The notes beneath the pieces were generated by a model. That model saw only the letters and a list, made by a program, of their open reading frames with translations. It made no database searches and was not told where the DNA came from. From a virus: a stretch of 24,457 nucleotides of DNA. This document shows, in pieces, positions 2,567 through 16,494 of the stretch. Made by a program: the position numbers and the translations under genes. Location of the stretch: UHGV virus genome UHGV-0127207, one strand, 5' to 3'. The number at the start of each line of letters is the position of its first letter. The first letter of the stretch is position 1.

Positions 2567-2912
2567 TCTCTGCTCCTGTTGATACGGAAAGGGAAACAGG
2601 CACACCGTTATTACGCCGCCCGGTCAGCTCCACCACCATTGAACCGTCAAAATTGCTGTTAATGGTGATGGAATCCAGCGTCAGCCGTGGCTCCCAGCGA
2701 CTCAGCGCCACATACACTGCCGACATGACCTGCAGGCGTAATGCCGGATTTTGTGGCTGGTCTATCAGTGCCGACAGCAGGGAACCATATTCCCGACGGG
2801 CAATGCGGCTACCCTGCGGCGTCAGCAAAATGTCCCGCACCGACTGGCGCAGATGATCAATATCAGTAATGGCTTTACCGCTGGTATTGTTCATCCCGCT
2901 ATAAAGCGTCAT
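2553..2912 (-). CDS. W: Baseplate protein gpW
   Basis: 119 aa ORF between V and J; start overlaps V stop; size and position match P2 W. Confidence 0.85.
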   Translation of the reverse strand: MTLYSGMNNTSGKAITDIDHLRQSVRDILLTPQGSRIARREYGSLLSALIDQPQNPALRLQVMSAVYVALSRWEPRLTLDSITINSNFDGSMVVELTGRRNNGVPVSLSVSTGAENGSD

Positions 2913-3487
2913 ACCGGGCCTCCGGTTGTGTCGCCGCCTTTCAGGACGTCAGTATGCTGATGCGCATCAACCACGATCCCGTTAGAACTCATCGCTCCGC
3001 CGCCCTGGGTAACGCCACCATTGATCACCACTTCGCTGTTAATGCGCGTGCGGTCAGCCTCCAGTACAAACTCACTGGTTTTCATGGTGATGTTGTCAGC
3101 GGCCTCAATGACCATTGATTTGATGCCCCTGACATACCAGCGCCCGGTAGTGGGTTCGTATTCAAACCAGCCGCCGTCAGGATGTTCTGTCACGCAGGCG
3201 TCTGCCGACGTCGACGGTGGTGCGAACTGATTCGAATAGACAGCGGGCAGCGCAAAGGCAGTTTCCAGATTGCCGCCCAGACTCAGCAGCACCACCTGCT
3301 CACCTTCCGATGGTCGCCACCATGTGCGGGCATTCCCGGCACGCAGCGTCAGCCAGCTGATCCAGTTGGTTTCAAGCTCGCCCGTTTTCACCCGGCAAAG
3401 CCAGTTTTCCCGGTCCACTTCGGTGACTACACCAGTGCGGATCAGGTTGGTGATAAGGCGCATGATTTCGGTTAGTTGTGCGTTCAT
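2909..3487 (-). CDS. V: Baseplate spike/assembly protein gpV
   Basis: ORF 2909..3595; ATG at 3487 (MNAQLTEIMRLITNLIRTGVVTEVDRENWLCRV...) chosen as start; P2 gpV-like; first gene of the V-W-J-I-H operon. Confidence 0.85.
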   Translation of the reverse strand: MNAQLTEIMRLITNLIRTGVVTEVDRENWLCRVKTGELETNWISWLTLRAGNARTWWRPSEGEQVVLLSLGGNLETAFALPAVYSNQFAPPSTSADACVTEHPDGGWFEYEPTTGRWYVRGIKSMVIEAADNITMKTSEFVLEADRTRINSEVVINGGVTQGGGAMSSNGIVVDAHQHTDVLKGGDTTGGPV

Positions 3488-3582
3488 AGGGTTAGGTTGC
3501 ACGGACCTTGAATCTATGGCATCAATACGTCCTTGTGTGGTAAATGACACAAATACAATTCCAATCAAAGAAAGGTAAAAGA

Positions 3583-4113
3583 ATGAGCCATCCAATTGAT
3601 TATTACGCTATAGAAGAACACGCAAGAATAATTGAGCAATTATGCTGTTCATCTGAATTTTATTTACAGCGTATATATTCCACACAGAAAGTATATGATG
3701 GTTCTATAGTAACTGAATTTGAAATGGAGGAGTTATCGTACAACGGATGGTTGGAATATACCATTAGCAACAATCTTATTAGCCTTTGTACAAAACTACG
3801 AATTCTCCAAGACACTAGTGAACATGAGTGGAACCCAGATTACTCACCTGAGAAAGAAGCATTTGAAGAACATGAAAATATACTTTTTGTTATAGATGGT
3901 CATGTTAAAGATTCTATACGCGAATGCTGCAATAAAATTATTCACGCATTAAGTTTTGAGTTAACAAAAAAGACCGGCAAAAATGGAATAAAATATTGGG
4001 ACGGTTCTATTATTGCTTCTGGGGTTCAAAACAAAAAAAACTGGAAAATTAAAATAGACCTTTTCCCTTTTTGCCAAAGCATAAAAAGTTATTTAAGTTT
4101 ATTAAGAGCGTAA
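3583..4113 (+). CDS. Hypothetical protein of unknown function (moron inserted between tail genes S and V, opposite strand)
   Basis: ORF 3544..4113; ATG at 3583 preceded by AAAGG with 7 nt spacer; visibly A+T-rich; opposite orientation to all flanking structural genes; no motif I can recognise. Confidence 0.6.
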   Translation: MSHPIDYYAIEEHARIIEQLCCSSEFYLQRIYSTQKVYDGSIVTEFEMEELSYNGWLEYTISNNLISLCTKLRILQDTSEHEWNPDYSPEKEAFEEHENILFVIDGHVKDSIRECCNKIIHALSFELTKKTGKNGIKYWDGSIIASGVQNKKNWKIKIDLFPFCQSIKSYLSLLRA

Positions 4114-4118
4114 ACATT

Positions 4119-4571
4119 CTAATTTTTCATCAATAAATACTTTAAAAGTAAATCTCTTACTTCATTTTCAGTATGTTCATTTAAACCCAGCAATTTTCGG
4201 GATGGATACTTAATGACTCCCCCCTTTGGACTGACGCGATCGCGCAGACCGTAGTGATGAACACGGGCAATACGCTGTACCTTACCTTCAAACTGTACGC
4301 TGGCAGAATCCGCGCTGGCGGCAGTTCTCAGGTATTTTGTAGTGCGCAGCTTTGCAAACATCTGACGTTTGATGCGCCCCTTCTTGCTGCGTGCTGTTAC
4401 CCTGCGCGGCTCATAACTGCTGCCATCTGGATTGCGCTGCATCCTGATATTCTGCTGCTGTGTCCGGCGCAGTTCCTGCGCCAGCTGGCGCATCATTCGG
4501 CTTCTTGCGGCTGGTTCCAGATTCGCCAGCAAAGCACTCAGCCAGTCGTCCACCTTCTGCAGTTCAGCCAC
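4119..4571 (-). CDS. S: Tail completion protein gpS
   Basis: 150 aa ORF (MAELQKVDDWLSALLANLEPAARSRMMRQLAQELRR...), P2 gpS-like; overlaps R stop. Confidence 0.85.
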   Translation of the reverse strand: MAELQKVDDWLSALLANLEPAARSRMMRQLAQELRRTQQQNIRMQRNPDGSSYEPRRVTARSKKGRIKRQMFAKLRTTKYLRTAASADSASVQFEGKVQRIARVHHYGLRDRVSPKGGVIKYPSRKLLGLNEHTENEVRDLLLKYLLMKN

Positions 4572-10074: not shown

Positions 10075-11841
10075 ATGAACACCACACTGACACCCGCAGA
10101 TCTCGATCCCCGTCGGCAGGCCATGCTGCTGTACTTTCAGGGATACCGCGTCGCCCGCATTGCTGAAATGCTGGGCGAGAAAGTTGCAACCGTTCACAGC
10201 TGGAAAAAACGCGACAAGTGGGGTGACTATGGGCCGCTGGATCAGATGCAGCTCACCACCGCCGCACGCTACTGCCAGCTCATTATGAAGGAGCACAAAG
10301 AAGGGAAAGATTTCAAAGAGATTGACCTGCTGGCGCGCCAGTCTGAGCGCCACGCGCGGATCGGCAAGTTTAACAATGGCGGTAACGAAGCCGACTTAAA
10401 CCCTAACGTCGCCAACCGCAACAAAGGCCCGCGCCGTCAGCCGGAAAAGAACGTTTTCACCGATGAACAAATTGAGAAGCTGGAAGAAATCTTCCACTCC
10501 TCCATGTTCAACTACCAGCGCCACTGGTGGGAAGCCGGAAAAACCAACCGCATCCGCAACCTGCTGAAGTCACGCCAGATCGGCGCGACCTTTTACTTTG
10601 CCCGTGAAGCCCTGATTGACGCCCTGCTGACCGGACGTAACCAGATTTTCCTTTCCGCCAGTAAGGCACAGGCCCACGTCTTTAAGCAGTACATCATCGA
10701 CTTCGCCAAAGAAGTGGAGGTGGAGCTGAAAGGCGATCCGATGGTGCTTCCTAACGGGGCCACGCTTTACTTCCTCGGCACCAATGCCCGCACAGCCCAG
10801 AGTTATCACGGTAACCTGTATCTGGATGAATATTTCTGGATACCGAAATTCCAGGAGCTGCGCAAAGTGGCTTCCGGTATGGCTATTCACAAAAAATGGC
10901 GACAAACCTATTTTTCCACGCCATCCAGCCTGACCCACAGTGCTTATCCGTTCTGGTCCGGTGCGCTGTTCAACCGTGGACGCAACAAAGCCGACAAGGT
11001 GGACATCGACCTGTCCCACAGCAATCTGGCCCCCGGCCTGCTGTGCGCAGACGGGCAGTACCGCCAGATAGTCACTGTGGAAGATGCGGTGCGCGGCGGC
11101 TGCAACTTGTTCGACCTCGACCAGTTACGCATGGAATACAGCCCGGATGAATACCAGAACCTGCTGATGTGTGAGTTCGTGGACGATCTCGCGTCCGTGT
11201 TCCCGCTCAGCGAGCTGCAGGGGTGCATGGTGGACAGCTGGGAAGTCTGGACCGACTTTCATGCACTGGCGCTGCGCCCGTTTGGCTGGCGCGAAGTGTG
11301 GATCGGTTATGACCCGGCAAAAGGTACGCAAAACGGCGACAGCGCCGGGTGCGTGGTGGTGGCACCGCCAGCCGTGCCGGGCGGTAAGTTCCGCATTCTT
11401 GAGCGTCACCAGTGGCGCGGAATGGACTTCCGCGCCCAGGCTGACGCCATCAAAAAACTGACCGAACAGTACAACGTGACCTACATCGGCATCGACTCAA
11501 CCGGCGTCGGTCACGGGGTTTACGAGAACGTGAAAGCGTTCTTTCCTGCCGTCCGGGAGTTTGTCTATAACCCCAACGTTAAAAACGCCCTGGTACTCAA
11601 GGCCTACGACATTATCAGCCACCGCCGTCTGGAGTTTGACGCCGGGCACACCGACATTGCGCAGTCATTTATGGCAATCCGTCGCGCCACCACCGCCAGC
11701 GGCAACCGCCCGACCTATGAAGCCAGCCGCAGCGAAGAAGCCAGCCATGCCGATCTGGCCTGGGCAACAATGCACGCACTGTTTAACGAACCGCTGCAGG
11801 GCGAGTCCGCCAATACCAGCAATATTGTGGAGATTTTTTGA
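10075..11841 (+). CDS. P: Terminase large (ATPase) subunit gpP
   Basis: 588 aa (MNTTLTPADLDPRRQAMLLYFQGYRVARIAEMLGEKVATVHSWKKRDKWGDYG...), P2 gpP-like; followed by and overlapping Q. Confidence 0.9.
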   Translation: MNTTLTPADLDPRRQAMLLYFQGYRVARIAEMLGEKVATVHSWKKRDKWGDYGPLDQMQLTTAARYCQLIMKEHKEGKDFKEIDLLARQSERHARIGKFNNGGNEADLNPNVANRNKGPRRQPEKNVFTDEQIEKLEEIFHSSMFNYQRHWWEAGKTNRIRNLLKSRQIGATFYFAREALIDALLTGRNQIFLSASKAQAHVFKQYIIDFAKEVEVELKGDPMVLPNGATLYFLGTNARTAQSYHGNLYLDEYFWIPKFQELRKVASGMAIHKKWRQTYFSTPSSLTHSAYPFWSGALFNRGRNKADKVDIDLSHSNLAPGLLCADGQYRQIVTVEDAVRGGCNLFDLDQLRMEYSPDEYQNLLMCEFVDDLASVFPLSELQGCMVDSWEVWTDFHALALRPFGWREVWIGYDPAKGTQNGDSAGCVVVAPPAVPGGKFRILERHQWRGMDFRAQADAIKKLTEQYNVTYIGIDSTGVGHGVYENVKAFFPAVREFVYNPNVKNALVLKAYDIISHRRLEFDAGHTDIAQSFMAIRRATTASGNRPTYEASRSEEASHADLAWATMHALFNEPLQGESANTSNIVEIF

Positions 11842-12875
11842 TGGGAAAGAGTAAGAAGAACCGCGCTGCGGCGACGAAACAGATCCAGCATAAAAACCAG
11901 ACTTCAGCCGAAGCATTCAGCTTCGGCGATCCCGTTCCGGTTCTGGACCGCCGTGAACTACTGGACTATGTGGAATGCGTACAGACAGATCGCTGGTATG
12001 AGCCGCCAGTGAGTTTTGACGGACTGGCGCGAACCTTCCGCGCTGCCGTACATCATAGCTCCCCGATTGCAGTAAAGTGCAACATTCTGACCAGTACCTA
12101 CATCCCTCACCCGCTGCTCAGCCAGCAGGCTTTTTCACGTTTTGTGCAGGACTATCTGGTATTTGGTAACGCCTATCTGGAGAAACGCACGAACCGCTTC
12201 GGTGAGGTTATCGCCCTTGAGCCTGCTCTGGCAAAATACACCCGACGCGGGTTAGACCTGGATACCTACTGGTTTGTGCAATACGGTATGACAACCCAGC
12301 CGTATCAGTTCACGAAAGGCAGCATTTTTCATCTGATGGAACCGGATATTAATCAGGAGATCTACGGCCTGCCCGGCTATCTTTCTGCCATTCCGTCAGC
12401 CCTGCTCAACGAATCCGCCACGCTGTTCCGCCGCAAGTATTACATTAACGGTAGTCATGCAGGCTTCATCATGTACATGACCGATGCCGCGCAGAACCAG
12501 GAGGATGTGAACAACCTCCGCAAGGCAATGAAAAGTGCTAAAGGACCGGGCAACTTCCGCAACCTGTTTATGTACTCGCCTAACGGCAAAAAAGACGGCC
12601 TTCAGATCATTCCTCTGTCAGAAGTCGCGGCGAAGGATGAGTTTTTGAATATCAAAAATGTTAGTCGCGATGACATGATGGCGGCACACCGCGTGCCGCC
12701 GCAGATGATGGGGATTATGCCTAATAATGTTGGGGGATTTGGGGATGTTGAGAAGGCGGCGCGTGTTTTCGTACGCAACGAACTTACACCACTCCAAGGC
12801 CGCGTGATAGAAATTAACGAGTGGCTGGATGATGAAGTGATTCGCTTTAACCCATACCTGACTGAGGAAGATTAA
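11838..12875 (+). CDS. Q: Portal (capsid vertex) protein gpQ
   Basis: 345 aa; start overlaps P stop; P2 gpQ-like length and position. Confidence 0.9.
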   Translation: MMGKSKKNRAAATKQIQHKNQTSAEAFSFGDPVPVLDRRELLDYVECVQTDRWYEPPVSFDGLARTFRAAVHHSSPIAVKCNILTSTYIPHPLLSQQAFSRFVQDYLVFGNAYLEKRTNRFGEVIALEPALAKYTRRGLDLDTYWFVQYGMTTQPYQFTKGSIFHLMEPDINQEIYGLPGYLSAIPSALLNESATLFRRKYYINGSHAGFIMYMTDAAQNQEDVNNLRKAMKSAKGPGNFRNLFMYSPNGKKDGLQIIPLSEVAAKDEFLNIKNVSRDDMMAAHRVPPQMMGIMPNNVGGFGDVEKAARVFVRNELTPLQGRVIEINEWLDDEVIRFNPYLTEED

Positions 12876-12961
12876 CGCTCACCTGACCTATCCTTCATAT
12901 CAACCGCTCTTCCTGGGGCGGTTTTACCCCCACTTCAATAGACGGTTTAGGGATGACAATC

Positions 12962-12982
12962 AAAACGCTCCTAAGAGCGTTT
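12962..12982. terminator. Candidate bidirectional hairpin terminator between convergent Q and the accessory operon
   Basis: AAACGCTC-CTAA-GAGCGTTT inverted repeat with T-rich stretches on both strands; the stop codon of the 239-aa gene lies in the loop. Confidence 0.35.
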
Positions 12983-13690
12983 CTGTTTACGGTTTGACTC
13001 TATTTGTTTTTTTAGCTGGATAAGCCTTTCAACTAACTCAAACACTTTTGTACTTGGATTATCAGTATCGCTAGCTTCAGCAGCCTGTAAACTTCTCTTA
13101 GCCCTAAGGACTACTTCATTTAAATCTTTTGACTCTAAAGCGTTTAGGGTTTTCTGAAAAATCCCTTTTGAGCCTTTCTCATAGTCCTTAATATATTTTC
13201 TTAACTCATTTACAATTTGATTTCCTGAACTATTACCAGGTAAATTTCTAAATGCCTTTGTCGAATAGGTATAATGTAGAAGTAACCAATATTCAAAACA
13301 AGGTACTGAATTCACAGTAAACCAAGTTGAGCTTGGTTTACTTCTCCTGATAGCGTCAAGCGCTGCCATGTAATCAGAGTGGGCATCCTTATCAATCACT
13401 ACAAAGATTTGATCATAAGGAGCCCCCTGTTCAGTCATTTTTTTATGCTGTGCTTTTGCATGACGAACAACACACATAGGACTAGAGCCACATTCTCCAG
13501 TTACATCAATTACACTTGCTGTAAGTAATTCAAAATGATTTATCAAATCCTCAAAGTAATTTGGTTCAGTTTTTTTACCCTCACAAACAATTAATATTTT
13601 AGCGAGAGGGGATTTTATTGCATTACGTCTTGCTAGATCCTTAGCCGTTTTAGGGGCACGTTTCTTTTTGAATAAATCCTCGCTTCCCAT
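12971..13690 (-). CDS. TOPRIM-like protein (RloB/AbiLii-type or DUF4435/AriB-type), second gene of a candidate anti-phage pair
   Basis: 239 aa; N-terminal ILIVCEGKKTEPNYF and downstream VVIDKDAHSD consistent with a TOPRIM E...DxD core; A+T-rich; starts 1 nt after the upstream ATPase gene stops. Confidence 0.6.
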   Translation of the reverse strand: MGSEDLFKKKRAPKTAKDLARRNAIKSPLAKILIVCEGKKTEPNYFEDLINHFELLTASVIDVTGECGSSPMCVVRHAKAQHKKMTEQGAPYDQIFVVIDKDAHSDYMAALDAIRRSKPSSTWFTVNSVPCFEYWLLLHYTYSTKAFRNLPGNSSGNQIVNELRKYIKDYEKGSKGIFQKTLNALESKDLNEVVLRAKRSLQAAEASDTDNPSTKVFELVERLIQLKKQIESNRKQKRS

Positions 13691-13691
13691 A

Positions 13692-14957
13692 TCAAATCCC
13701 CGTCAATTTCTTGATGAACGGCAATGCTCCATACCGACCGTCTAGGTATGCGGCTTCTAAATTTTCTCTTCCTTTCCTTGGACTAAAATCAGTCAATGGA
13801 TATAGATTAGTTTCACTGAGTTCATTTTTCTCACAAAACCAAACTTGATCACGTCTAAAAATGCTTTGATTCAGAATGGATGTTTCATGTGTTGAGAAAA
13901 TTAACTGCGCACCTTTTTTATTAGTAACCGGACTATTAAAAAGATTTACCAAGAAACTAACCAACTTTGGATGCAATGTATCGTGAAGCTCGTCGATTAA
14001 TAGTACATATCCATTATCGAGCGCATCTAACCATGGACCAGCTAAAGAAAAAAGCTTTTGAGTGCCATGAGATTCCTCTTCAAGAGAAAAACTTACCGGC
14101 TCACCTTTATCGTTATAATGGACAGTAGTAACATCAAAAACTTCTTTATCCTTCATATTAGAAATAACGATTTTTTTGATATCATCTGGCATATCAGATG
14201 GCAAATCATCTGGATTAAATTTTTCTTTCTTAACTAAAACATCATCAATGCCAATATCTGCAGCTTGCAAAAAATTCAAGATATCTTTCTTCATATCCTC
14301 GGTGCAGCGTTTAGCGGAGAATGTATTAGCCCATCCATTAATTCCAGAAAGTCTCAGTGTTTTTTTAAACCAAGTAAAAACAGGCTTAAGCTGCTCGCTA
14401 TTTAATTGAACAGCTGTAGACAAGAACAGGGCATTATTTCTAGTTGAACGCTGCCAAACTTGTTTTTCACCAAGTAGTGATGCGCCAAAATCCCAATCAT
14501 ATTCCTGCTTCTCTTCATCCCAAGCTCTGAAATACCACTTTTGAGGCCTTCCTTTTGGGTACGCAAAGAGCCATTCATCAATAATTCTTTCATTTGTAGC
14601 AGAAAAACCAAATTGATACCGGGTGCCCTCTGCAATAAAAGTAACTTCAAATTCAGTAGGTTTTTTAATTGAATCTGAATCAAGCTTGAAGGGGAATACG
14701 GGAACCTCTTCACCAGCCTGAGAGTTAGATGCAGAGTGGATAACTAAATCCATCATAGCCCTGACAGCCAGAAGTACATTCGACTTGCCCGCTGCATTCG
14801 CACCGTAAATAACAGCTGACTTTAGAACATTAAGGTTAACGTTTCCCTCTACTGTAAAGATATTCTCTTTTAACTCGTTACTTTTGTTAGCAATAAGTGA
14901 AAGTGTTTGTTTGTTTTTGATTGAGAGATAGTTCTCAACATTGAATTCAATAAGCAT
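13692..14957 (-). CDS. ABC/SMC-like P-loop ATPase (AAA_15/AAA_21-type), first gene of a candidate anti-phage pair
   Basis: 421 aa; Walker A GANAAGKSN, Walker B VLLIDELHD, H-loop-like FSTHET; strong RBS AGGAGGG before the ATG; A+T-rich. Confidence 0.7.
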   Translation of the reverse strand: MLIEFNVENYLSIKNKQTLSLIANKSNELKENIFTVEGNVNLNVLKSAVIYGANAAGKSNVLLAVRAMMDLVIHSASNSQAGEEVPVFPFKLDSDSIKKPTEFEVTFIAEGTRYQFGFSATNERIIDEWLFAYPKGRPQKWYFRAWDEEKQEYDWDFGASLLGEKQVWQRSTRNNALFLSTAVQLNSEQLKPVFTWFKKTLRLSGINGWANTFSAKRCTEDMKKDILNFLQAADIGIDDVLVKKEKFNPDDLPSDMPDDIKKIVISNMKDKEVFDVTTVHYNDKGEPVSFSLEEESHGTQKLFSLAGPWLDALDNGYVLLIDELHDTLHPKLVSFLVNLFNSPVTNKKGAQLIFSTHETSILNQSIFRRDQVWFCEKNELSETNLYPLTDFSPRKGRENLEAAYLDGRYGALPFIKKLTGI

Positions 14958-15135
14958 TTTTACCCTCCTGGTGGTTGAATAATCTTAGTTGCAAAAGCAA
15001 CAAACGTCACCAACAACCAAATCTTAAGGCATTTTATGACAAAAAACGTCAAAATGGTACTCATAAAATGAATTTAAACCAGTTTATTAGACTTAACATC
15101 TAATATTTACGGCTAGCTTTCGCCCTGAACGCGCG

Positions 15136-15154
15136 CTCGTATCCCCGCCACGCC
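15136..15154 (-). other. Candidate cos (cohesive end) site of the phage genome
   Basis: Minus strand reads GGCGTGGCGGGGATACGAG; the first 13 nt match my recollection of the 186/P2 19-nt cohesive end (GGCG(T/A)GGCGGGGAAAGCA(T/C)); G+C-rich motif in a non-coding A+T-rich stretch. Confidence 0.35.
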
Positions 15155-15533
15155 TGCCCGCTTTATGCAGTGGTTTTCATGCACATGCATGACATGAGCA
15201 AAAGCCCGCCAGTTCTGGCGGATCTGAGCAAAGACGATCCTCAATCGATCATGCGATTTCATGCAGCATAGTCATGCACTGTCAAGGAAGTGAAAATCCG
15301 TATCTGAATGGCCACTTGAAAAACGGATCATACGGGTTTACAAAGATGAATGTTCGCTGTGAACGGGAAGCGGAAGTTAGCTTTCAGATAACATAATCCA
15401 TATGCACGAGAACCTCTAAAATAGAATGGGACACCTAAGCGGGGTACTTACAACGATTCTTTCCAGATTCACAGTTAACACTCTGTTTGGCGTATTTTTA
15501 TTCAAATAGCAAACACCAATAAAAGGAGTTTCC

Positions 15534-15869
15534 ATGAACAATATTCCCCCTATACCACAGTTAGGAATTTATGTCTCAAAAATCGATCCCACCCTACGTA
15601 TCACTGTAACCGATGTTGATATTGTTGATGGTGAGGATGATTCTCCTGATGATGAGTTGTTTTATTTAGTCCACTGGATCGAGGGGGAAGATGAAAGTGA
15701 TATGACAGCAATGGGATTTGAGCTAGACCCAGTAGAGTGGCAGGCTTTCGTTGAATCTGAGCAATTAGTGTTTGAGCGTGATCCGTACATGGATTCAATC
15801 CCCGAAAATTCAAACTTGGCAAAGATTCGGGATTTTCTCATGAAGACTAAACAGAATGATCATTCGTAA
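15534..15869 (+). CDS. Small strongly acidic protein of unknown function (candidate DNA-mimic / anti-restriction)
   Basis: 111 aa; strong RBS AAAAGGAG before the ATG; about 26 Asp/Glu against about 7 Lys/Arg by hand count, including runs DGEDDSPDDE and EGEDESD; A+T-rich; opposite strand to flanking genes. Confidence 0.6.
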   Translation: MNNIPPIPQLGIYVSKIDPTLRITVTDVDIVDGEDDSPDDELFYLVHWIEGEDESDMTAMGFELDPVEWQAFVESEQLVFERDPYMDSIPENSNLAKIRDFLMKTKQNDHS

Positions 15870-16061
15870 GTGTAAGCATCCATCAGGAAAATGGTTTTGT
15901 AAGTGAATCATCAACTTTTAGAGAGTCTCAGACACTCCCACTTCTGCTTCTGACACAAAGCGGACGATCACTTATCAAAATAACCGCCCACCTTACGCCT
16001 TATTTCACTCATTGCCCAAACTAGCCCCCATCAGAATGAATCCTCCTGGGGGCAACGTTTC

Positions 16062-16295
16062 TTAATGCAGCCAGCTGTCGTCCTCCCACACCTTCTGCAT
16101 AATTTTCATCACTTGTTTTCTTTCTTCATCCAGTTGCAGTCCGGTTAGTTCCACACCGTTAGAGCTACCTTTGCGAATGCGAATTACCGTTTTGGGATAC
16201 AGGGGGCGCAGATTGCGGTAAAGCTCGGATTCAAGGGCGTCCAGGGTAGACTGGCTAATCTTCTGCTCTTTATCGATCATTATTTCAATGCGCAT
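16062..16295 (-). CDS. dinI: DinI-family protein (DNA damage-inducible protein I homologue)
   Basis: ORF 16062..16367; ATG at 16295 preceded by GAGGTGA gives 77 aa MRIEIMIDKEQKISQSTLDALESELYRNLRPLYPKTVIRIRKGSSNGVELTGLQLDEERKQVMKIMQKVWEDDSWLH, alignable to E. coli DinI (MRIEVTIAK...ELSRR...ETWESADDWF). Confidence 0.8.
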   Translation of the reverse strand: MRIEIMIDKEQKISQSTLDALESELYRNLRPLYPKTVIRIRKGSSNGVELTGLQLDEERKQVMKIMQKVWEDDSWLH

Positions 16296-16305
16296 AAAAG
16301 TCACC

Positions 16306-16494
16306 TCAGCTGATGACATCCATTGAGCGGTTGTATTCGTGGCTTCTGATTTTTGCCATGAGTTCATCAGTCAATTCAGAAACCCACTGCAGAGCCAGCC
16401 CCTTCTCTTCATCACTACACTCACTAGCCGCTACAAGCTTAAGAAAAAAATCAATGCGCTGGAGCTTCAAAGACTCCAAAAAATAGTCCTGCAT
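16306..16494 (-). CDS. Small SOS-controlled protein, candidate antirepressor (Tum-like role)
   Basis: 62 aa; strong RBS AGGAGG; first gene after the LexA box and directly upstream of dinI; functional assignment is inference from context only. Confidence 0.45.
   Translation of the reverse strand: MQDYFLESLKLQRIDFFLKLVAASECSDEEKGLALQWVSELTDELMAKIRSHEYNRSMDVIS

Follow-up and report, generated by a model that had tools for sequence, protein, structure and literature searches.

Which system is encoded by the two minus-strand genes found at 12971-14957 of the virus genome UHGV-0127207? The window (the whole stretch of 24,457 nucleotides (nt) analyzed here) is a P2/186-like prophage, in which genes for baseplate J/V, tail S/R, capsid, terminase, portal, gpA, Dam methylase, CII (CP76), CI repressor and integrase were recognized, and the two genes lie next to the portal gene. 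A preliminary description, made from the letters of the DNA, had proposed them as a candidate defence module composed of an ATPase and a TOPRIM-like protein, and had left the choice open between AbiL, PARIS and split OLD-like systems. When both proteins were compared with the Pfam and PADLOC models, the candidate was supported by AAA_21, RloB, AbiLi and AbiLii matches, no DUF4435 or OLD TOPRIM model was matched by the second protein, and the choice was resolved in favor of AbiL/RloAB. The two genes thus very probably form an AbiL-family (RloA/RloB) defence cassette. For this assignment blended with a mechanism in which the ATPase would sequester and release a nuclease, we would give a probability of about 0.7.

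The ATPase and its RloB partner

The first gene of the pair (abiLi/rloA type; 13692..14957, minus strand, ATG start) encodes a Rad50/SMC-like ABC ATPase of 421 amino acids (aa). This protein was matched by the Pfam model AAA_21 (5.7e-39, 135 bits) and, over aa 1-418, by the PADLOC model PDLC02335 AbiLi (1.1e-100, 334.9 bits). Three motifs were located, GANAAGKSN at aa 52-60 (Walker A), LLIDELHD at aa 319-326 (Walker B/D-loop) and FSTHET at aa 354-359. In 46 homologues, the invariant residues were G52, N54, A55, G57 and K58 of Walker A, Q115 of the Q-loop, the signature-like S296-x-G-T-x-K301, D322-E323 of Walker B and H357 of the H-loop. All the elements of an ABC ATPase were therefore found, namely Walker A, Q-loop, signature, Walker B with its catalytic Glu, D-loop, H-loop and the ABC head fold. 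The protein is 61% identical to a Neisseria wadsworthii protein named RloA, and more than 7,370 homologues are detectable. A sequence search of the PDB, carried out with the single sequence or with a profile, gave no matches. The label 'AbiEii toxin, type IV TA' is the Pfam title of AAA_21; it is a family-name artefact and was not taken as evidence.

The second gene (abiLii/rloB type; 12971..13690, minus strand, ATG start) encodes a RloB-family protein of 239 aa. It was aligned with the full Pfam model RloB (PF13707, 1-195 of 195; 6.5e-35, 121.5 bits for a cut-off of 31.5) and matched PADLOC PDLC02337 AbiLii at 1.6e-29; 717 RloB homologues are detectable. Two motifs were present, ILIVCEGKKTEPNYF at aa 32-46 and DKD at aa 100-102. 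Among 52 homologues, G38, K40, E42, D100, D102, H104, E133 and H139 were invariant, and E37 was at least 90% conserved. All the motifs quoted in the preliminary description for the two proteins were recovered, on invariant or near-invariant columns. In PHROGs, both proteins belong to families of 'unknown function'.

The TOPRIM motif, as reportedly defined by Aravind, Leipe and Koonin in 1998, has a four-stranded parallel sheet, with strand 1 followed by a conserved Glu and strand 3 by a DxD. The AlphaFold2 model of RloB (pLDDT 87.6, pTM 0.82) predicts an alpha/beta core with a parallel sheet, in which strand 1 (32-36) is followed by E37-G38, strand 3 (94-100) ends with D100-K-D102, and strand 4 is followed by P130-x-x-E133. 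Both the Glu and the DxD are thus found where the motif places them, in the model as well as in the pattern of residue conservation, and motif 1 is alike in RloB and P2 Old (LLVEGKTETN against LIVCEGKKTEPN).

However, the likeness of RloB to established TOPRIM proteins was weak. A Foldseek comparison of the model with the PDB returned nothing at E <= 1e-3, and a PDB sequence search gave noise only (proteins with an AP-endonuclease-2 domain at E ~0.6, and helical proteins of de novo design). When a profile of 102 RloB sequences was compared with a profile of 42 Old-type TOPRIM sequences, motif 1 alone was aligned, weakly (P 7.6e-4, probability 25%; reversed control, P 0.47). The Old-type profile was obtained from a search of representatives, as just 5 fragments had been recovered when homologues were sought with the TOPRIM region of P2 Old; with P2 Old as a single sequence, hhalign gave no match to the RloB profile. 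With Pfam and PADLOC, no AriB/DUF4435 or OLD-TOPRIM match was obtained for the RloB protein, nor for any of the 52 family members at E <= 10. Because the motifs fit but the Foldseek and profile similarities are weak, the protein is named TOPRIM-like, and it is regarded as a putative nuclease. The ATPase plus TOPRIM-like architecture put forward at the outset was thus upheld by the motifs, and found little backing in fold and profile comparisons of RloB.

The basic N-terminal tail of RloB (aa 1-30; 13601-13690, minus strand) has the pattern MGSxDLFxKRK...L.R, in which M1, G2, R11, L19 and R21 are at least 90% conserved. It is predicted to be disordered (pLDDT 51-76) and is mostly missing from the shorter lactococcal homologue. 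This tail could serve to dock RloB on the ATPase, or as an arm that binds nucleic acid.

AbiL and similar two-gene systems

Every computable feature of AbiL was found at the locus: both PADLOC models match, and the ATPase gene is followed directly by that of its partner, in the same orientation, as a bicistronic unit. At their junction, TGAtATG (13688..13694, minus strand), the stop and the start codon are exactly 1 nt apart, as had been noted earlier. The genes are co-transcribed, and this junction is consistent with translational coupling, which probably takes place. Among 61 viral-contig loci with a RloB relative, the ATPase gene was directly upstream in 58 of the 58 that had upstream sequence (identity 27-96%), and 53 of 57 related viral loci had a tight junction, within -47 to +9 nt. 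The ATPase-RloB pairing is obligate.

The link with Lactococcus was provided by prophage proPhi7, whose ORF55 and ORF56 are annotated as abortive phage resistance proteins and are also spaced by 1 nt. These sequences were taken from a phage collection and served as the lactococcal side of the comparison. ORF55 and the window ATPase align over the full length with 29% identity (E 8e-43), and hhalign of the RloB profile with ORF56 gave a probability of 97.5% (E 6e-12), with CEGxxTE, DxD and E-W-LLLH in register. The proPhi7 pair is also labeled AbiLi/AbiLii by PADLOC, with scores below those of the window pair. AbiL of Lactococcus lactis and the window cassette share a bicistronic arrangement of an ABC ATPase followed by a RloB-family protein, and the proPhi7 pair also has the 1-nt junction and the conserved acidic motifs. 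L. lactis AbiL and the cassette differ in their carrier, a plasmid for the former and a P2/186-like prophage of a Gram-negative enterobacterial host for the latter. Furthermore, the lactococcal (proPhi7) pair is only ~25-29% identical to the window pair, and its RloB has 192 aa, whereas that of the window has 239 aa and the basic N-terminal tail. A tblastn search of plasmids with RloB gave no Lactococcus match.

RloA/RloB of Campylobacter and Neisseria type I restriction-modification (R-M) loci have in common with the window pair the full-model RloB match and the identity of the ATPase to N. wadsworthii RloA. However, no hsd neighbors are present in the window, where the pair adjoins the portal gene and cos instead. 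The relatives that were examined (Cellvibrio, Neisseria and E. coli EC1515) are likewise located outside type I R-M loci.

AbiL has been grouped with PARIS, MADS and OLD as a system made of an ABC ATPase plus a TOPRIM protein (PMC11464382, PMC13064643), and the first of these had to be considered as an identity for the cassette. In PARIS (AriA/AriB), anti-restriction proteins, for instance Ocr, are sensed by a hexameric ABC ATPase, which then frees a DUF4435 TOPRIM tRNase. The architecture is alike (a split AAA_15/21 ATPase followed by a small TOPRIM-like effector), the PADLOC 'AriA' model PDLC02980 matches the window ATPase at 1.8e-37, PARIS is common in P4 and P2 hotspots (PMC9122126), and HHpred in Rousset 2022 ties AriB weakly to RloB with a probability of 90.6%. 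But the defining partner was not found: neither DUF4435 (PF14491) nor AriB was matched by the partner protein with Pfam and PADLOC. PARIS was rejected on this ground and is a very improbable identity for the pair, while providing a plausible template for a mechanism in which a sensor releases a nuclease.

The remaining candidates differ in gene organization or in partner. P2 Old, a class 1 OLD nuclease, is one fused polypeptide encoded on the gpA side of cos, whereas two proteins are encoded here on the portal side; the fused class 1 was rejected since there are two separate open reading frames (ORFs) with an intervening stop codon. Gabija (class 2), in which GajA is accompanied by the UvrD-like helicase GajB, was rejected since the cassette has no helicase gene. 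Septu PtuA and the retron Ec83/Eco7 ATPases have HNH nucleases or retron reverse transcriptase/multicopy single-stranded DNA as partners, not RloB.

Boundaries, setting and spread of the cassette

The GC content is 0.367 over the two genes and 0.37 over 12876-15129, against 0.55 for terminase plus portal and 0.53 for gpA. This agrees with the A+T-rich island of the preliminary description. The GC content is thus 37% in the cassette and ~55% in the flanking backbone, and because of this foreign composition the cassette is considered as cargo. Homology to the E2348/69 and H15 prophages stops at 12757-12790 and is back at 15129/15130, so that the exchangeable cassette (12791..15129) comprises the last ~30-40 portal codons, convergent terminators, rloB, rloA and a leader. 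Elsewhere the slot is occupied by other genes, a DprA-family gene in the E2348/69 prophage and a hypothetical gene of 469 aa in the H15 prophage. The conserved backbone begins at 15130 and is common to ~1,260 E. coli genomes.

At the portal end (the portal gene, PF04860, is at 11838-12875, plus strand), the break is located within the last ~30-40 codons (12757-12875) and not past the stop codon. Since homology breaks inside the gene, the portal C-terminus appears to be exchanged along with the cargo.

RNA folding indicated that the portal gene and rloB are kept apart by convergent hairpins. The first (12902..12923, plus strand; -13.3 kcal/mol, z -2.74) is a tQ/tW-like hairpin with a U run at the end of the terminase-portal operon, P2 tQ and 186 tW being annotated at the equivalent position. 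The second (12962..12983, minus strand; -13.4 kcal/mol, z -2.56) is terminator-like, with the rloB stop codon within its loop and a weak U-tract. At the other end of the cassette, a Shine-Dalgarno sequence AGGAGG (14964..14969, minus strand) is read 6 nt before the ATPase ATG. It belongs to an A+T-rich leader (14958..15129, minus strand), presumed to be the promoter region, which travels with the cassette: it is identical in E. coli ETEC4091 and mostly conserved in Klebsiella phage ST13-OXA48phi12.1. An Rfam scan revealed no RNA component, the sole match being a sub-threshold sraL, considered as noise.

A cos-like cohesive-end sequence was identified at 15136..15154 (minus strand; reverse complement GGCGTGGCGGGGATACGAG) by alignment with the cos junction of P2. 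Of its 19 nt, the first 13 match the annotated phage 186 cos exactly, and DinI and gpA follow beyond it. The interval between portal and cos has ~170 bp with only a terminator in P2 and 186, and 2,260 bp with the cassette in the window. The location first proposed was correct in that the cassette stands between the portal gene and the cos-like site and replication genes, but the position of P2 old/tin, to which it had been likened, is different, since these genes are on the gpA side of cos and the window cassette is on the portal side. Both positions are inside the published gpQ-gpA hotspot, and variable cargo between gpQ and gpA, next to cos, is what is observed here.

This cos-proximal region is a validated defence hotspot in P2-like phages (Rousset et al. 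2022, PMC9122126), the description of which was extended in a 2026 preprint. The main text of the P2 hotspot papers does not name AbiL. The supplementary tables of Rousset 2022, however, list in the gpQ-gpA hotspot an arrangement 'hypothetical + DinI + AAA_21 + RloB', as well as a family 'AAA_15/AAA_21/SMC_N | RloB' with 37 occurrences. As AAA_21 plus RloB in the P2 hotspot was already catalogued in 2022, the window cassette is expected and not new in kind.

The cassette ends 6 nt short of the cos 19-mer, beside portal and terminase, and the combination of an ATPase and a nuclease is superficially terminase-like. From this position, a role in the life of the phage itself could be imagined, for instance as a helper in packaging or in the cleavage of cos. 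But P2 and 186 have no gene in the portal-cos spacer, the flanking backbone is far more widespread in E. coli than the cassette (1 of 5,426 complete genomes), homologous pairs are abundant outside phages, and the foreign GC content marks the cassette as cargo. The chance of such a role is considered as negligible.

The position of the pairs relative to cos varies between carriers. In loci L008-L012, AbiL pairs that are 70-79% identical to that of the window are found on the gpA side of the cos-like motif, in the order ATPase-RloB-cos-portal. In the comparison of loci L005-L007 and L015-L017, the window type and some relatives of 46-49% identity were on the portal side, in the order cos-ATPase-RloB-portal. 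In IMG/VR, AbiL pairs of 28-93% identity adjoin P2-type portals in 15 loci. As divergent pairs adjoin P2-type portals and both sides of cos are occupied, the module has been captured repeatedly by P2-like phages and moved across cos.

AbiL is widely detected by DefenseFinder and PADLOC. The window cassette itself is rare. It was found nearly identical (98%) in only one complete E. coli genome (ETEC4091) and at 91% identity in Klebsiella phage ST13-OXA48phi12.1; relatives of ~67% nucleotide identity are present in 15 more of the 5,426 E. coli genomes. Pairs were also located outside phages: that of Cellvibrio japonicus is in a defence context, with Wadjet (JetABCD) on one side and a type III R-M system on the other, and that of Neisseria is near RhuM and an integrase. 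In E. coli EC1515 (NZ_CP021844), a RloA/RloB pair of 67% nucleotide identity is flanked by two integrase genes, where another prophage-like island ends. RloB-family genes of ~31% identity are also present on plasmids of 3.5-5.3 kb in Klebsiella, E. coli and Salmonella, most of them predicted to be mobilizable. This suggests that the RloB family also travels on minimal plasmids, where a toxin-antitoxin (TA)-like stabilizing role is plausible.

For the window, the corresponding explanation would be an addiction module stabilizing the cassette or the prophage, with RloB as toxin and RloA as antitoxin and no dedicated anti-phage role. Besides the very small mobilizable plasmids and the tight coupling of the two genes, it draws on NetFlax, which puts pairs of AAA ATPase and TOPRIM_OLD/RloB in the type II TA network, AAA-ATPase antitoxins having been validated by neutralization of TOPRIM_OLD toxins in two systems (PMC10440598), and on the toxicity of Fusobacterium nucleatum AbiLii in E. 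coli (PMC3985639). On the other hand, the original AbiL gives phage resistance (PMC13064643, PMC10440598), relatives are found in defence islands and phage defence hotspots, and in one test AbiLi in trans did not neutralize AbiLii (PMC3985639). TA behavior and abortive defence can moreover coexist. A pure addiction module is thus improbable.

Other variable sites were noticed in the window. On the gpA side of cos, 15281-16051 contains an acidic ORF of 111 aa (15534-15869, plus strand), which belongs to phrog_17127 of unknown function and has no Pfam or PADLOC match. This ORF is kept in the E2348/69 and H15 prophages, and unrelated genes are present there in ETEC4091 and ST13-OXA48phi12.1. Because carriers that share the AbiL cassette differ from the window in this region, it is a second, independent variable slot. 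Next to it, the DinI ORF (16062-16367, minus strand) has 101 aa as called. As the DinI domain spans aa 38-100 and the DinI-like gene is annotated with 234 bp in relatives, the true start is probably the internal methionine of MRIEIM. A second A+T-rich island (GC 0.34 at 3501-4000) carries an ORF of 189 aa (3544-4113, plus strand) on the strand opposite to its neighbors, the baseplate spike gene gpV (2909-3595, minus strand) and the tail gene gpS (4119-4571, minus strand). Its position is presumably the 'orf30' accessory slot of P2. It matches phrog_18838, of unknown function, at 6e-136 and has no Pfam or PADLOC match, and is a candidate for uncharacterized cargo.

Possible mode of action and significance

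How might the cassette act? It is very probably AbiL-type lysogenic-conversion cargo of the P2/186-like prophage. RloA, as a Rad50/SMC-type ABC ATPase, is most likely an ATP-dependent sensor of infection and the keeper of the effector, and RloB, as a TOPRIM-like, putative metal-dependent nuclease, is most likely the toxic effector. In the uninfected lysogen, RloB would be kept inactive by RloA. Upon superinfection, a component or a replication product of the incoming phage would alter the state of the ATPase, RloB would be set free or activated (by sequestration/release or by ATP-dependent activation) and would cut nucleic acid. By analogy, the candidate substrate is either tRNA, which is cut by AriB and P2 Old, or DNA, which is the target of Gabija/OLD class 2. 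In this way, the infection would be aborted, and the lysogen population and its prophage would be protected. Taken by itself, this sequester-and-release mechanism is put at slightly less than even odds.

Several observations weigh against it. The sequestration model is borrowed from PARIS, but in structure the ATPase is closer to Rad50, PtuA and the retron ATPases than to AriA. AbiLi supplied in trans failed to neutralize the toxic AbiLii, and the AbiLii of L. lactis is non-toxic (Dy et al. 2014, PMC3985639). A promoter scan of the minus-strand leader gave no consensus-grade sigma-70 site 5' of the ATPase gene, the candidates picked manually being poorly spaced. Finally, the literature search found no experiment on the cassette or on any enterobacterial AbiL.

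A direct, non-abortive mode of action was also considered, in which a RloA-RloB complex would recognize and cut the invading phage DNA, as do Gabija GajA and the class 1/2 OLD nucleases. But the pair has neither a long coiled coil nor a helicase partner, an abortive action at a stage after transcription is ascribed to lactococcal AbiL (PMC13064643), and the best-studied relatives, AriB and P2 Old, are tRNases (PMC11464382). Such a complex is rather unlikely, though more probable than a pure addiction module.

The proteobacterial RloA/RloB clade, of which the window cassette is a member, may also differ from PARIS, the Rad50/PtuA-like ATPase directly reading a structure in phage nucleic acid, such as DNA ends or replication intermediates, and licensing RloB on a substrate that would be new among ABC ATPase plus TOPRIM systems. 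In this clade, the ATPase is ~58-61% identical from Enterobacteriaceae to Neisseria and RloB has the conserved basic tail MGSxDLFxKRK; furthermore, the cassette adjoins cos in phages making cohesive ends. This possibility is speculative and held with low confidence.

Returning to the AbiL assignment, the enterobacterial copy described here, with its sharp boundaries, would be a convenient model, which is its main value: genetics and phage panels exist for P2/186-like prophages, and P2 Old and PARIS can be used for comparison. AbiL was described in 1999, and its mechanism is still listed as undetermined in reviews up to 2026 (PMC13064643, PMC11464382). The cassette could be used to address its trigger and its substrate, and to establish whether systems made of an ABC ATPase plus a TOPRIM protein share one logic. 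For P2-like phages, the cos region emerges as a two-sided docking site, with closely related AbiL pairs on either side and very divergent pairs repeatedly in the same slot. If the proteobacterial clade does read the structure of phage nucleic acid, the E. coli copy carried by this P2-like prophage would be a tractable model, in which the mechanism of AbiL may first be revealed.

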